IMG/VR virus record: IMGVR_UViG_3300045988_069061
DNA from: a virus
DNA: 64,000 nucleotides
Direction: 5' to 3' (one strand)
Shown here: positions 46,903 through 61,546 of the stretch, in pieces
How positions within the stretch are numbered: the stretch's first letter is position 1
How the letters are laid out: every line of letters begins with the position of its first letter
The notes under the pieces: generated by a model
The model's input: the letters and a program-made list of their open reading frames with translations, nothing else
Databases searched by the model: none
What the model was told of the DNA's origin: nothing
Translations under genes and position numbers: made by a program

Positions 46903-46974
46903 CTTTCCTTAGTTCAATGGATAGAACCTCTGTCTTCTAAACAGATAATTCCAGTTCGAATCTGGAAGGAAAGA
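46903..46974 (+). tRNA. tRNA-Arg (anticodon TCT)
   Basis: Acceptor ctttcct/aggaaag. Anticodon arm tctgt-CTTCTAA-acaga. T arm tccag-ttcgaat-ctgga. Confidence 0.85.
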
Positions 46975-46981
46975 CTATTAT

Positions 46982-47052
46982 TCTCCCTTAGCTCAACGGT
47001 AGAGCTTTCGACTTTTAATCGAAAGACAAGAGTTCGACTCTCTTAGGGAGAA
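46982..47052 (+). tRNA. tRNA-Lys (anticodon TTT)
   Basis: Acceptor tctccct/agggaga. D arm gctc/gagc. Anticodon arm ttcga-CTTTTAA-tcgaa. T arm aagag-ttcgact-ctctt. CCA encoded. Confidence 0.85.
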
Positions 47053-47578
47053 CCAACTTTAAATAATTAAGCTATGATAAATGTAGACGAATTAAGAAAC
47101 AAAAAGTAGCTCGGAGAAATAGGAGAGCCATTGGTGAATTATCAAAATATGGATTAGATATTTTATTACCAATGTCTGACAATCTACCATTTGATTTTGT
47201 TATAATAACAAGTTTTACAGAACTTAGGTGAAAACTGTAAATAACTCGTTGAACTTTAGTTTAACAAGTAATAATTATAACAAAGGGACCGTTCACAAAT
47301 ACAACGAGGATGAAATAGATATTATGATATGTTGCGACCTTCATAACATCTATATATTTCCAGAATGTGATGTTGCTAATAGAAATTCTATTACTATTAG
47401 GGAGGAACCTCCAGCTAATAATTAGACAAAAGGTATAAACTTTGCAAAAGATTGCATCATATCTATAGAAAGATTAAATTATACTTTCTCTAAGATAGAG
47501 AAATAATTCCCTATTAATAGGGAAGTCTTTTTCTTTTATTCCGCTAGTAAACATTTGTTGTGAAACACGTGTTTGCAT

Positions 47579-47651
47579 CTGGGTATAGTCGAGTTGGTAA
47601 GATGCTACATTTGGGATGTAGAGACCGCAGGTTCGAGTCCTGCTATCCAGA
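47579..47651 (+). tRNA. tRNA-Pro (anticodon TGG); weak D stem
   Basis: Acceptor ctgggta/tatccag. Anticodon arm ctaca-TTTGGGA-tgtag. T arm gcagg-ttcgagt-cctgc. The D stem has one mismatch. Confidence 0.55.
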
Positions 47652-47862
47652 CAAGAAGTAATCAACATTCACTATTAGTACAGCAATTAGGACTGTAGGG
47701 TGCCTTTTAGATGAATCCCTGATTACTCCAATTAACAGAGGTGAGTTCCCTTAAAATTGTTACCACGCACTAGTGCGGCTATTAGCTACTAGAGGACTTG
47801 GGGTGCCAAGAGGAAGAATTGTAGTAGCTATGTTAATTAGAACAAATCTGTTAATTGCTTTA

Positions 47863-47946
47863 TGGATAGCGCCAACGATGGAGAGTTGGGACGGACTGTA
47901 AATCCGTTGCCTTTAGGCTTAGTAGGTTCGAATCCTACCTATCCCA
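47863..47946 (+). tRNA. tRNA-Tyr (anticodon GTA), class II with a long variable arm
   Basis: Acceptor tggatag/ctatccc (1:72 mismatch). D arm ccaa-cgatggagag-ttgg. Anticodon arm acgga-CTGTAAA-tccgt. Variable arm gcctttaggc. T arm gtagg-ttcgaat-cctac. Confidence 0.75.
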
Positions 47947-47973
47947 CAATTATGTAAAATAACTTACCAAAAG

Positions 47974-48336
47974 ATGATAAGAATTTCTAGAATTGTAGCT
48001 AAGGATAGAATAGCAGATTTGCTAGACTTGAATTTCGTATCTAAGATAACTCTTAGACAAGGATTCAAAAATCCTGCAATTTGCAGAGTGGAAATCTATC
48101 TCCAAGTAGATAATGATACAGAATACTTTAATAGTGTTATGAGTAACATTGTTGACTGGGGAAAGGAGCGTAATTGTAATATTGCTGTTACCACAGCAAA
48201 TATGGCTCTACATGATGGATTTATTAAAGAGTCTGCATTTGATGACTTTGATTATCCTATGCCAAAAAAGTATAAGGACTTATGCAGCGTATATTCTGAC
48301 GAATATTTTAGACTATTTAATAGGAGAAAGATATAA
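47974..48336 (+). CDS. hypothetical protein (120 aa)
   Basis: ORF-track entry. Confidence 0.45.
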   Translation: MIRISRIVAKDRIADLLDLNFVSKITLRQGFKNPAICRVEIYLQVDNDTEYFNSVMSNIVDWGKERNCNIAVTTANMALHDGFIKESAFDDFDYPMPKKYKDLCSVYSDEYFRLFNRRKI

Positions 48337-48539
48337 TGGAAGACAAATATGAAGGGCTATCTGATGAAGAACTCAAAGAAATCTTCGAAGATATGCAGGC
48401 AGACTATTGGATAGATTATTATCAATCTATCTATGAATAAAACCCTATTAGCGAGACCTAGGATATGGATTTTAGAAATATGTATACCCACTGCATATAG
48501 GTTAGTCATATTTAAATGAGGAAACCAGGGTTCTCTACT

Positions 48540-48626
48540 AGGTCGATTCGGGATTGTAACCGGTAGCCGCGCAGACTGTAAATCTGCTCTCTTTTGAGAC
48601 TGGAGGTTCGAGTCCTCCCACACTAA
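48540..48626 (+). other. tRNA-Tyr-like 3' fragment or degenerate tRNA: anticodon arm, variable arm and T arm present, no matching 5' acceptor strand
   Basis: gcaga-CTGTAAA-tctgc, variable tctcttttgagac, T arm ggagg-ttcgagt-cctcc, then cacacta. No complementary 5' strand was found within ~60 nt upstream. Confidence 0.35.
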
Positions 48627-48852
48627 TTTCAATATATTATGATGATATTCAGCATTTATATACGTAATAAGCACGTACATAGTTGGCCTTTATATGGCAG
48701 TAAATGAACGATTTGTTACAGTTAGAAGACTCGCAATAATGGCATTACCAGTAATAAATACTATATTTGTTATTGTAATACTATTATTTGATATTAAACC
48801 ATTTATAAAAACAGTTATAAACGAATTTAAAGAAATTACAAAATGACAAATT

Positions 48853-59367: not shown

Positions 59368-59445
59368 GTAGGGAAATAACTGATAAGGATATTAATGATT
59401 CATTATTTAATATCCCATTTAGAGAGAAGTACTTTAAATCTTAAT

Positions 59446-59530
59446 ATCCGTGTGGGTGAATGGTTTAGCCATCAGTCTGCAAAACTGAAAAGAGAAATCT
59501 TTAATGAGGGTTCGAATCCCTCCACGGATT
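59446..59530 (+). tRNA. class-II-shaped tRNA (long variable arm, Ser-like scaffold) carrying anticodon GCA (Cys)
   Basis: Perfect acceptor atccgtg/cacggat. D arm ggt-gaatggttta-gcc. Anticodon arm tcagt-CTGCAAA-actga. Variable hairpin aaaga-gaaa-tcttt. T arm gaggg-ttcgaat-ccctc. 85 nt. Confidence 0.55.
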
Positions 59531-60307
59531 CTAATTTTAAATTTAAAAATATGGCATATATTTATTGCATTACAAATTTAATTAATAGAAGCGATACGTA
59601 GGAAAAACTACTACTTCTATAGAAGAGCGCTGGAAGGAACATTGTTATGACTTTTAGAAAGAAAGATGCAACAAAAGACCTTTATATGATACCATGAATA
59701 AGTATGGTGTTGAGAACTTTATGATAGAGGAATTGGAATATGTAGATAGTAACTCTGAATTATCTGAAAGAGAAATCTATTGGATAAAAGAGCTAGGAAC
59801 TTATGGTACAATGCCTCTAAAGGAGGAGATGGCACTATTCTATACAATCATAGTGAAATTGTAGAATTAGCTAGATTGGGATATACTAGTTCTTAGATAC
59901 AAGAAAAAATAGGGTGCTGTAAAGACACTATTTACAAAGTTTTGAAGGCAAATAATATAAAAATTAGAAAAAGTAACGCAAAGTTAATTGCTTAGTATGA
60001 CTTAGCAGGTATTCTTTGGTTCCAGAGAAGCTTAGGAATGGTTAATTAATAACGGAATTACTGACAATAAATCTGCATAGAGTCATATTATAGGATGCTG
60101 TAAGAATAAAACCAAATCATAGTATGGCTACATTTGGAAATATCTTCCAGAGCCTATTTAATCTTTAAATCACTGTTTCGACATTTTCAGTCTAAATGCC
60201 GTGTCTGGAGACGTTACCAACCAGTCGTGCTATACGGTTAGAATAGTCCGTGCCTCACTGGTGATAGAGGCATCCCTGGGTAGCGGATGTAAAGTAGCTG
60301 CCAATAT

Positions 60308-60386
60308 CGTGGAGTAGAGAAGTGGTCATCTCGCTAGGCTCATAACCTAGAAATCGTCATAAACGGTTCGAATCCTACCTCCGCAA
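60308..60386 (+). tRNA. initiator-like tRNA-Met (anticodon CAT) with a C1-A72 mismatch; ~6 extra nt in the variable/T-arm region
   Basis: Acceptor cgtggag/ctccgca: 6 of 7 positions pair (one G-U) with a C1.A72 mismatch as in bacterial tRNA-fMet. D arm gaga-agtggtca-tctc. Anticodon arm ctagg-CTCATAA-cctag. The T stem flanking the ttcgaat loop is poor. Confidence 0.45.
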
Positions 60387-60630
60387 CGAAACTCCTTTTG
60401 TGGCTCTGAATTAGATTAATTATTAACAATTTTAAACTTTGATGTTATGAAGAAAGTAATTAATGTTGTGAAGAAAGCTGCTAAGTGGTATTTTGAACAG
60501 AGTTCTAAGAGCTATACATGGTTAGTTTCTGGAACTATTCCGCCTCCTTATAGAGGTCTAGAGTAAAGATACTACTAAAAGGTAAGTACCAAAGGGGTAC
60601 TTATCTACACCCGTGGAGAAAATTAACTAT

Positions 60631-60702
60631 TGGGGTATAGTTCAAAGGTCAGAACTTTTGACTGTTAATCAAAGAATCATGGTTCGAGTCCATGTGCCCC
60701 AG
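60631..60702 (+). tRNA. tRNA-Asn (anticodon GTT)
   Basis: Acceptor tggggta/tgcccca. D arm gttc/gaac. Anticodon arm tttga-CTGTTAA-tcaaa. T arm ccatg-ttcgagt-ccatg. Confidence 0.85.
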
Positions 60703-60823
60703 CTATTGACCTTATATTAGATTATGCATCAGTGTGATTATTGTTGTTGGTACTACAGTGGTGATTGTCCATATGTAATGAAGAAACAAGCGTGTGAAAA
60801 TGCTTTGAAAACTAAAGAGAGAA

Positions 60824-61084
60824 ATGAAAGACCTATTAGAAAAGTACAAAATGTTTCAAACTCCAAAACTAGCTAATGAGATTTCATGGAAAGACATGAA
60901 GGAATTTAACTCTTATATGAAAGAAGTAGTTCGTGATTATAAGATTAAACAGGCTAAATCAATTCAGAGTGCTAGAAACGTAATAATATCCTGGCAAGGT
61001 AAAAATCCATTCGGGGTTGAAGCCAGTCCCTGCGGAATCATAAAGACCTTTTCTGATACGATAGTCGATGAACTGAGAGAGTAG
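60824..61084 (+). CDS. small hypothetical protein
   Basis: ORF-track entry. Confidence 0.4.
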   Translation: MKDLLEKYKMFQTPKLANEISWKDMKEFNSYMKEVVRDYKIKQAKSIQSARNVIISWQGKNPFGVEASPCGIIKTFSDTIVDELRE

Positions 61085-61205
61085 CATGGTTGCGGACTTA
61101 TGCTACTAGAACATGATTCAAACAAAAAAAACTTATCTGGTGTTGTGGAATCTTAACAGTGGAAATTTATGGGTATGTCACCAATTAAAAAGAAAATCCC
61201 AAAAA

Positions 61206-61278
61206 TGGGCCGTTAGCTCAAATGGCTAGAGCGCTGGTTTTGCACACCGGAAGATAGGGTTCGAGTCCCTGCGTGTCC
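61206..61278 (+). tRNA. tRNA-Ala-like (anticodon TGC) with a poorly paired acceptor stem
   Basis: D arm gctc/gagc. Anticodon arm ctggt-TTTGCAC-accgg. T arm taggg-ttcgagt-ccctg. Acceptor gggccgt vs cgtgtcc pairs at only 4 of 7 positions. Confidence 0.45.
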
Positions 61279-61473
61279 ACAAACTTTATTTAAAAAATTA
61301 TGAAAGTATATGTAGTAAATTATCACCCAGCTAATGCTCCTCAAAATTATGAAACTGATTGCCAAATCTTCTTAGACAAGAAACAGGCAGAGAAGTATAA
61401 AGAGGCTAAGGAAAAAGAGTTTCCTATTAGCTGGGGAGGAGAGTATAATCATTGTAAACTAATTAAAAAGCAT

Positions 61474-61546
61474 TTGTAATATCGCGGGATGATAGCAGGG
61501 CAGGCTCATAACCTGAAGGTCGTCGGTTCGACTCCCGTTATTTTTA
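61474..61546 (+). tRNA. tRNA-Met/Ile2-like (anticodon CAT), structure imperfect
   Basis: cagg-CTCATAA-cctg anticodon arm and ggttcgact T-loop region. Acceptor and T-stem pairing are weak. Confidence 0.35.

Follow-up and report, generated by a model that had tools for sequence, protein, structure and literature searches.

Lineage-specific short deletions and clade-conserved odd forms among the aberrant tRNA genes of a crAss-like gut phage

Pseudogenes of transfer RNA (tRNA) in phage and bacterial arrays are recognised by their homology to intact genes, their disabling lesions, their lowered covariance scores and the functional tRNA genes that stand beside them. Here, we analyse the tRNA island of a virus genome fragment (IMG/VR record IMGVR_UViG_3300045988_069061, a stretch of 64,000 nucleotides hereafter called the window), in which ~25 tRNA-like elements lie at 46.9-63.8 kb, thirteen of them canonical, eight truncated and three or four odd in structure but conserved in the clade. 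The truncated elements have all the features of such pseudogenes and differ from the usual kind in that eight genes were disabled within ~0.15-0.25% substitution divergence, by pure deletions of 5-13 nucleotides (nt; 1 nt in the first copy of tRNA-Tyr), often two or three per gene, rather than by a gradual mixture of substitutions and indels. Slipped-strand or microhomology deletion between short direct repeats is classically known, as a RecA-independent type of event, from E. coli, T4 and T7; the losses described below (5-22 nt, with 4-6-nt junction repeats and some copy losses of tandem 6-9-mers) are of this type and depart from it in being gathered in one 20-kb zone, in outnumbering substitutions by ~2.5:1 and in recurring independently in several lineages.

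The tRNA region of T4/T6 with its SegB gene (PMC2330249, PMC13096335) resembles the island in having a GIY-YIG gene between tRNA genes and in being mosaic and recombination-prone. SegB, however, drives co-conversion and segmental amplification, showers of short deletions have not been reported for it, and the endonuclease gene of the window is frameshifted; SegB nevertheless offers an earlier example of phage tRNA regions made plastic by breaks. Metazoan mitochondrial armless tRNAs offer a structural likeness (a Gln without D arm; a Leu without anticodon arm that keeps its acceptor and T arms), but they are conserved across taxa together with co-evolved partners, whereas the forms described here are private to one lineage and arose by deletion. 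Blocks of tRNA genes, a tRNA-CTA, amber recoding and diversity-generating retroelements (DGRs) are known from the zeta/epsilon crAss-like phages (PMC12386605, PMC7886860), which match the window phage and its relatives in these traits and in a genome length of ~178-192 kb (PMC12386605, PMC7886860, PMC11054128). In PMC12386605 the word ‘deletion’ occurs once, in another sense, and the literature searched yielded no described phage precedent for microdeletion bursts or for phage tRNA pseudogenes of such kind.

Our reading, to which we assign a probability of roughly 85%, is that the aberrant elements are tRNA genes recently inactivated by deletion in a regional burst (eight elements), accompanied by older non-canonical forms shared by the clade. 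A preliminary description, made from the letters of the window, had noticed canonical tRNAs interleaved with aberrant ones and had offered four meanings for the pattern: decaying pseudo-tRNAs, disruption by mobile endonucleases, deliberately non-canonical RNAs, and assembly indels. We accepted a tRNA when it reached the gathering score of RF00005 (29 bits) with all four arms present, and a transfer-messenger RNA (tmRNA) when it reached that of RF00023 (47 bits). The intron, pseudo and mitochondrial modes of ARAGORN re-found remnants together with dozens of false matches across the window, and were not used as evidence. The truncated set comprises the following elements (RF00005 scores; L013 is a relative that carries the intact genes):

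47863-47947, plus strand: tRNA-Tyr(GTA) copy 1, acceptor base G1 lost through a 1-nt deletion (GGG to GG); 30.5 bits against 39.4 in L013
48550-48621, plus strand: tRNA-Tyr(GTA) copy 2, pseudogene; 20.6 bits (match 48553-48618) against 47.4 in L013
51279-51345, plus strand: tRNA-Trp(CCA) pseudogene; 28.7 bits (match 51283-51350) against 39.5 in L013
54637-54701, plus strand: tRNA-Gln(TTG) pseudogene; 47.8 bits against 62.2 in L013
56120-56182, plus strand: tRNA-Leu(TAG) pseudogene; 35.0 bits against 60.6 in L013
57618-57670, plus strand: tRNA-Cys(GCA) copy 1, pseudogene, aligning to the intact Cys gene of relatives (57.1 bits in L013)
61483-61540, plus strand: tRNA-Met(CAT) pseudogene, 0 substitutions against L006/L008; the intact version has 44.5 bits in L013
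63704-63775, plus strand: tRNA-Ile(GAT) that has lost 5 nt (CTGCC) from the 3' T stem, with 0 substitutions; 43.8 bits against 63.3 in L013

ARAGORN predicted 13 tRNAs within 46903-60703 and Rfam recovered the same 13, with RF00005 scores of 30.5-71.8 bits, the two lowest being those of the lesioned Tyr copy 1 (30.5) and of an odd Met at 60308 (39.2). Besides these, RF00005 gave sub-canonical matches at 54637, 55584, 56120, 61207 and 63704 and, just below the threshold, at 51283 and 48553. The covariance models thus placed sub-canonical matches exactly where aberrant elements had been noticed beforehand and confirmed that arms are missing, which speaks against a mis-folding by eye. The Gln and Leu elements pass the score and yet miss an arm, those of Trp and Tyr copy 2 stay below 29 bits, and Cys copy 1 (~57618-57670) and Met 61483-61540 return no match in the window (for Cys at E<10); relative to L013, the scores of truncated elements fall by 9-27 bits or to no match. 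The Cys-like element that had been proposed at 57614 nonetheless stands, for it aligns to the relatives’ intact Cys gene. The earlier inventory had left out two canonical genes (Pro-TGG at 47579 and Cys-GCA at 59446) and three aberrant elements (Met at 61483, Ile-GAT at 63704 and the element at 55584); most of its canonical list was confirmed by ARAGORN and Rfam, but the Tyr-GTA at 47863, counted there as canonical, is without G1.

The lesions differ from gene to gene. Tyr copy 2 has lost 7 nt in the D arm and 6 nt in the T-stem/acceptor 3' strand (0 substitutions against L037/L034), and in Trp a 7-nt deletion (ATCCTTT) took out the T loop and the 3' T stem. The Gln gene lost 8 nt (ATGGTGTA) between ATGGT direct repeats, with 0 substitutions against L044/L045; in the covariance alignment its D arm is shrunk to ~4 nt, while the acceptor, anticodon and T arms are perfect. 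In Leu, deletions of 13 and 7 nt cost the gene its anticodon arm and some of its variable arm (0 substitutions against L008/L054), and the same kind of alignment retains the acceptor, D and T arms and a 3-bp GGC-ATGT-GCC stub where the anticodon arm belongs. Cys copy 1 combines losses of 8 nt (acceptor 5' strand/D arm), 6 nt (D arm) and 7 nt (anticodon-stem 3' strand/variable loop) with a single substitution, and Met 61483 combines internal deletions of 8/9 and 6 nt with one of 8 nt at its 3' edge. All lesions in the truncated tRNAs are net losses of 1-13 nt, and none contains inserted DNA.

Relatives of the window were collected through the AAA ATPase open reading frame (ORF) of the island, which retrieved 37 IMG/VR loci, and two GenBank virome scaffolds were added. 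In the 37 loci, ARAGORN found canonical genes at the orthologous places for both Tyr copies (85 nt), Trp (75), Gln (73), Leu (83), Cys (75), Met (74) and Ile (73-75). Intact versions of the truncated elements occur in nearly all of the ~40 relatives (39-63 bits by Rfam in L013), and the undeleted state is common to all relatives, which sets the polarity of the change. Compared with its best intact relative, each truncated element shows 0-2 substitutions over ~100 columns (flanks included) and one to three gaps; outside the gaps the copies are 99-100% identical, and the gaps (5-13 nt, 1 nt in Tyr copy 1) are flanked by 4-6-nt direct repeats. The truncated forms are confined to the near-clonal lineage of the window (L046, L049-L053), and every other locus that has the gene has the full cloverleaf. 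Both a syntenic intact orthologue and a derived disabling lesion were hence found for the truncated elements, and, judged by these alignments, the lesions are derived, lineage-specific deletions of canonical tRNA genes. Among the meanings offered beforehand, decaying pseudo-tRNAs is therefore the one that holds for the eight elements.

The truncated alleles recur outside the window. An exact-protein look-up found the window-type genome in ENA (ERZ28565548, ERZ27239386, ERZ1741874), JGI (3300029106) and Logan (ERR525733), and the truncated elements are base-for-base identical in the five other contigs from these sources that cover them. The assemblers and sources of the identical alleles differ (SPAdes NODE_36, MEGAHIT k119, a JGI assembly and Logan). 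Over 8 kb, two loci (L046 and L053) show 100% identity to the window, while L049-L052 have 0 mismatches to it over 12.0-17.6 kb and do not have the 8-nt deletion at 54850. A sister variant that differs by one deletion and by no substitution points to a heritable, still-eroding lineage, and not to an assembly error.

The lesions are not confined to tRNA genes. Over 46-64 kb, alignment to nearly every relative gives the window 25-42 deletions of 5 nt or more, and 0-3 insertions. In total, 71 lineage-specific deletions could be cleanly resolved; they measure 5-22 nt (mode 6 nt, with 7-9 nt common), and in several of them a perfect tandem 6-9-mer has dropped one of its copies. Their junctions carry a mean microhomology of 3.6 nt, against 0.79 nt for random placements. 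The comparison with relatives gathers most of them in one zone, which is the seat of the plus-strand tRNA island and of small accessory genes:

43200-63830, no strand assigned: zone with ~66 of the 71 clean deletions

Outside this zone deletions are scarce, numbering only about six, with none in the late genes. Within 27.4-42 kb the window is 99.46% identical to its closest relative (L088), with four deletions against it and five in the pooled clean set; in 1-21.5 kb, compared with 34 relatives, there are 0-1 lineage deletions, and the 3.2 kb past the window end contain one. At positions that are conserved apart from the lineage, it has 26 substitutions of its own over 18.0 kb of zone sequence and 53 over 21.7 kb of late-region sequence; deletions thus outnumber substitutions by ~2.5:1 inside the zone, and the late region has 0-1 deletions beside its 53 substitutions. 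Normal relatives differ from each other by ~0-5 such indels per 430-1430 mismatches (near 1:200), and the substitution divergence of the window branch is ~0.15-0.25%. The substitution spectrum of the zone is ordinary; being transition-rich and equal across bases, it rules out DGR-type adenine mutagenesis or another substitution bias there. Prophage-like decay is likewise ruled out, as the late genes are intact with 0-1 deletions. Inside the zone, two large ORFs (SPFH, 52114-54087, and AAA, 56406-57590) have zero deletions. A search of the deletion sites brought up no common motif (GTATA, the best 5-mer, is present at 11 of 66) and no convincing k-mer enrichment. The densest patch, at 43200-44900, has ~22 deletions in 1.7 kb against L088 (losses of 39 and 17 nt among them) and covers ORFs that are 152 and 167 aa long in relatives.

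In other lineages the same zone bears deletion sets distinct from that of the window, and these also strike His, Pro, Gly-TCC, the anticodon of Cys copy 2, Met and the Ala-like element. Independent sets of 5-20-nt deletions were seen in L006/L067/L154 (IMGVR 3300045988_058617), L027, L020, L016, L005 and L040/L044/L045. Contig 058617 has deletions in the zone and none in its late region; L027 differs from L030 by 34 deletions and 97 mismatches, L044 from L040 by eight deletions and four mismatches, and L040 from L054 by 15 deletions.

Losses between direct repeats are the signature of replication slippage or of microhomology-mediated repair. Each truncated tRNA is a canonical gene that has lost one to three internal segments lying between short direct repeats, probably by template switching at repeats of 4-6 nt. 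The same microhomology-deletion process scarred the surrounding intergenic DNA and the small ORFs, and the lesions are not specific to tRNAs; in the zone, deletions outpaced point substitutions, and purifying selection (or mutational coldness) spared the large ORFs and the 13 tRNAs. The most plausible setting would be repeated break repair or recombination in an endonuclease-rich, mosaic zone. We infer that the truncated tRNAs are non-functional by-products, given that the arms were lost haphazardly, that in several of them a T arm or an acceptor strand is gone, and that different tRNAs were lost in different lineages.

Several observations weigh against this reading. Three of the assemblies may stem from one sample (ERR525733 / SAMEA2579950 / JGI 3300029106), and their independence is only partly documented. 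An exact search of metagenome_contigs did not return the truncated Leu allele, and a gapped Leu pattern returned from the same collection only intact-length, mostly unrelated Leu tRNAs. The D-armless Gln keeps 47.8 bits and perfect acceptor, anticodon and T arms. A frame test for selection is weak, as 23 deletions in ORFs are in frame and 12 frameshifting, with 13 and 18 of the corresponding lengths outside ORFs (p = 0.08); the in-frame bias is only a trend, and the modal size is 6 nt in all classes. Clustering of deletions on already-dead tRNAs is not statistically established either, eight of 22 tRNAs having been hit by 14 events where ~10.5 would be expected (a rough estimate).

Two other accounts of the truncated elements have to be set beside their inactivation by deletion. 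If they were artefacts of assembly or sequencing, the real phage would have intact tRNAs; the intact versions in relatives agree with this, and an excess made of deletions only is a pattern that an artefact could give. The truncated alleles, however, are found again, letter for letter, in JGI, ENA and Logan data produced by different assemblers from different sources, the sister variant differs by exactly one deletion and zero substitutions, the late region and the two large ORFs are spared by the deletions, which end at ~63.8 kb, and a graded series exists elsewhere (from L054 to L040 with 15 deletions, and on to L044 with eight more), which makes the assembly indels considered at the outset extremely improbable. 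We also judge it very unlikely that the truncated elements are deliberate, non-canonical functional RNAs, be they armless tRNAs, defence decoys or processing signals. Perfect acceptor stems and T arms do persist in Gln, Leu and the element at 55584, tRNA-cleaving defences and phage tRNA counter-measures are known (PMC13096335), and the Ala-like element is invariant and conserved beyond the canonical tRNAs. Yet the truncations are restricted to one near-clonal lineage, their lesion sizes and junction signature equal those of ~55 deletions in intergenic DNA and broken ORFs, the arm lost is haphazard (in Trp, Tyr copy 2, Cys copy 1, Met and Ile it is the T arm or an acceptor strand), and other lineages lost different tRNAs (His, Pro, Gly, Cys copy 2); this suggestion of the preliminary description hence finds no support for the truncated set, which is private to one lineage. 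Its remaining suggestion, disruption by mobile endonucleases, finds no support: no tRNA carries an insertion, and the endonuclease genes found in the island, GIY-YIG and PD-(D/E)XK, are themselves frameshifted, as the following features show:

47074-47503, plus strand: pseudogene of a PD-(D/E)XK (PDDEXK_5) endonuclease, traced by tblastn with a relative’s intact 153-aa ORF (family by Pfam on that ORF); it lies in three frames, broken by 7-, 7- and 15-nt deletions
59551-60140, plus strand: pseudogene of a GIY-YIG + NUMOD1 homing endonuclease, traced by tblastn (domains by Pfam on a relative’s intact ORF); deletions of 10 and 14 nt at 59805 and 60006 leave tblastn pieces in frames 1, 3, 2 and 3

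Repair after endonuclease cuts is still a candidate cause of the deletions, and as the driver of the burst we entertain, tentatively, repeated double-strand breaks in the zone that are repaired by slippage-prone synthesis or microhomology end-joining, the breaks of which could come from homing endonucleases of co-infecting relatives, from host nucleases or from CRISPR acting on early-entering DNA. The mosaic zone with GIY-YIG/NUMOD1 and PD-(D/E)XK genes amid its tRNAs, the microhomology at the junctions, the independent bursts of other lineages in the same zone and the sharp drop outside it all fit this possibility, and SegB-type GIY-YIG enzymes are known to cut phage tRNA regions and to drive their rearrangement (PMC2330249, PMC13096335). 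It sits less well with the lack of a site motif (GTATA being best, at 11 of 66), with the dispersal of deletions over 20 kb instead of at one or two cleavage sites, and with the fact that the island’s own endonuclease genes are dead in the window lineage. More doubtful is a genome-wide slippage mutator (through a defective proofreading domain, exonuclease or single-strand binding protein) whose effects were sorted by purifying selection. In such a case one would understand that constrained ORFs within the zone also have zero deletions and that the late region, almost wholly made of large ORFs, is spared, and Crassvirales lineages are reported to swap DNA polymerases (PMC12386605); but ~5.8 kb of small-ORF and intergenic late DNA (an estimate from ORF coordinates) has 0-1 lineage deletions, the 3.2 kb past the zone (three tRNAs, spacers and small ORFs) has one deletion against ~10 expected, and contig 058617 is equally restricted to the zone. 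The sharp limits of the zone and the recurrence in the same zone favour a local process. We would put at slightly less than even the chance that a recurrent, zone-restricted process acts on the early/tRNA region of the clade, making 5-20-nt microhomology deletions faster than point substitutions arise in several independent lineages and stripping tRNA genes and small accessory genes; error-prone repair of breaks made by endonucleases or defence nucleases, and slippage tied to transcription or R-loops, are its candidate drivers.

The elements that are odd in structure and yet conserved in the clade stand apart from those inactivated by deletion:

55584-55663, plus strand: tRNA-like element whose acceptor stem (7 bp) and T arm are perfect and whose core is not that of a tRNA (RF00005, 31.7 bits)
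59446-59531, plus strand: tRNA-Cys(GCA) copy 2, 86 nt, intact, with a long class-II-like variable arm (ARAGORN; 56.3 bits)
60308-60387, plus strand: initiator-like tRNA-Met(CAT) with a C1/A72 mismatch and a T stem that ~6 extra nt cut down to 2 bp (39.2 bits)
61206-61280, plus strand: Ala(TGC)-like element with three acceptor mismatches (39.5 bits; match 61207-61279)

The Ala-like element keeps G1-C72, G2-C71, G3-U70, C4-G69 and A73, followed by the three mismatches; in E. coli these positions are the determinants of alanyl-tRNA synthetase. Exact copies of it occur in 47 of 54 loci (canonical tRNAs reach 8-33 and its flanks 9-29), and it constitutes the most conserved 75-mer of the island; being invariant, it offers no sequence variation for a covariation test. 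Of all the elements, this alone could plausibly have a deliberate non-canonical function. In L009 (~13969-14042) a deletion of all the intervening DNA has fused the 5' part of the Ala-like element, at its T loop, with the tmRNA 3' end, and ARAGORN accepts the fusion as a chimeric ‘tRNA-Ala’. The Met at 60308 scores 39.2 bits in the window and in L013 alike, is exact in 32 of 54 loci, has a form common to nearly the whole clade and is no more conserved than its own flanks. The element at 55584 also matches the two ends of the tmRNA model (23.8 bits) and is found at 97.5-100% identity in 13 loci, normal relatives included, so that it is not lineage-specific. It could be ruled out as the orthologue of the Met gene that relatives have at that place, as the sequences are unrelated and the cassette is variable (other relatives carry there a Met tRNA and a gene with a tRNA-ligase CPD domain). 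Cys copy 2 at 59446 is exact in 29 of 54 loci, and some relatives have a Cys of 75-76 nt there.

The intact RNA genes of the island are these:

46903-46975, plus strand: tRNA-Arg(TCT), canonical (ARAGORN; 64.4 bits)
46982-47055, plus strand: tRNA-Lys(TTT), canonical (ARAGORN; 71.8 bits)
47579-47652, plus strand: tRNA-Pro(TGG), canonical (ARAGORN; 66.4 bits)
49530-49603, plus strand: tRNA-His(GTG), canonical, with encoded G-1 (ARAGORN; 64.2 bits)
51180-51272, plus strand: tRNA-Ser(TGA), intact (ARAGORN; 48.0 bits)
54150-54235, plus strand: tRNA-Ser(GCT), intact (ARAGORN; 55.8 bits)
54497-54574, plus strand: tRNA-Phe(GAA), intact, with a 9-nt variable loop that is kept in relatives (ARAGORN; 67.2 bits)
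58976-59128, plus strand: tRNA-Gly(TCC) and tRNA-Gly(GCC), canonical (ARAGORN; 58.0 and 67.8 bits)
60631-60703, plus strand: tRNA-Asn(GTT), canonical (ARAGORN; 66.7 bits)
63132-63680, plus strand: tmRNA, 549 nt (RF00023, 72.7 bits over the full model)

The tmRNA that the preliminary description had counted within the island is thus real, but it lies beyond the interval then assigned to that island. It carries a 6-nt lineage deletion at 63425, is unusually long (549 nt against a model of 374 positions), and ARAGORN misses the tmRNA here and in all relatives but one. As for protein-coding genes, the largest ORF of the island (52114-54087, 657 aa), free of lineage deletions, has an SPFH/Band 7 domain; the AAA+ ATPase that had been proposed was recognised in ORF 56406-57590, also free of lineage deletions, whereas an RlmN-like methylase fold, attributed to ORF 46040-46840, has no Pfam support.

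The window phage agrees with a crAss-like gut phage that recodes TAG, and fits the description of the zeta/epsilon crAss-like group. Its relatives are human-gut contigs of 178-192 kb, and its terminase has 25-28% identity to Crassvirales terminases. The late region (1-36100) consists almost entirely of large ORFs; its late genes are readable only if TAG is a sense codon, which opens long ORFs (the longest of 2171 aa, with up to 41 in-frame TAGs) along the minus strand of 1-36 kb. The genes on the plus strand at 42-64 kb rely mostly on the standard code, and the tRNA-CTA sits between the late block and the plus-strand block. This suppressor tRNA goes with the TAG recoding of the minus-strand late genes, and is listed here together with the parts of the DGR:

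40650-40722, minus strand: suppressor tRNA with anticodon CTA, intact (ARAGORN; Rfam 66.3 bits)
22126-22213: DGR template repeat
22325-22416: DGR proximal variable region
49984-50071, plus strand: DGR remote variable region, within ORF 49633-50193, identified by its mismatches to the template repeat

Between the template repeat and the remote variable region, 18 of 18 mismatches stand at template adenines, which bears out the remote DGR target that had been described in the island; the DGR has two targets, and the remote one lies in the tRNA island. A putative reverse-transcriptase ORF (20706-21980, minus strand) contains four in-frame TAGs, its identity being judged by eye from the translation.

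Pseudo-tRNAs are an ordinary category; the regional microdeletion burst that produced them is unusual. For annotation, this means that half of the island’s ‘strange tRNAs’ are probably pseudogenes and not new RNA classes, while the Ala-like element at 61206 is to be considered apart from them, as a candidate functional tRNA of non-canonical form. The lineage appears to have lost its phage-encoded Trp, Gln, Leu(TAG), Ile and one Met tRNA, and both of its Tyr copies are damaged, which bears on the dispensability of tRNA arrays. Some ~70 short deletions in 20 kb, on a branch with few substitutions and repeated in sister lineages, are predicted neither by neutral decay nor by ordinary indel rates; the burst points to a localised mutational mechanism or conflict, and graded intermediates are available for its direct study in public longitudinal gut metagenomes. 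If such a zone-restricted process exists, phage genomes would have a further, separate way of eroding rapidly, and its scars would be a legible record of conflict in the DNA that is expressed first.

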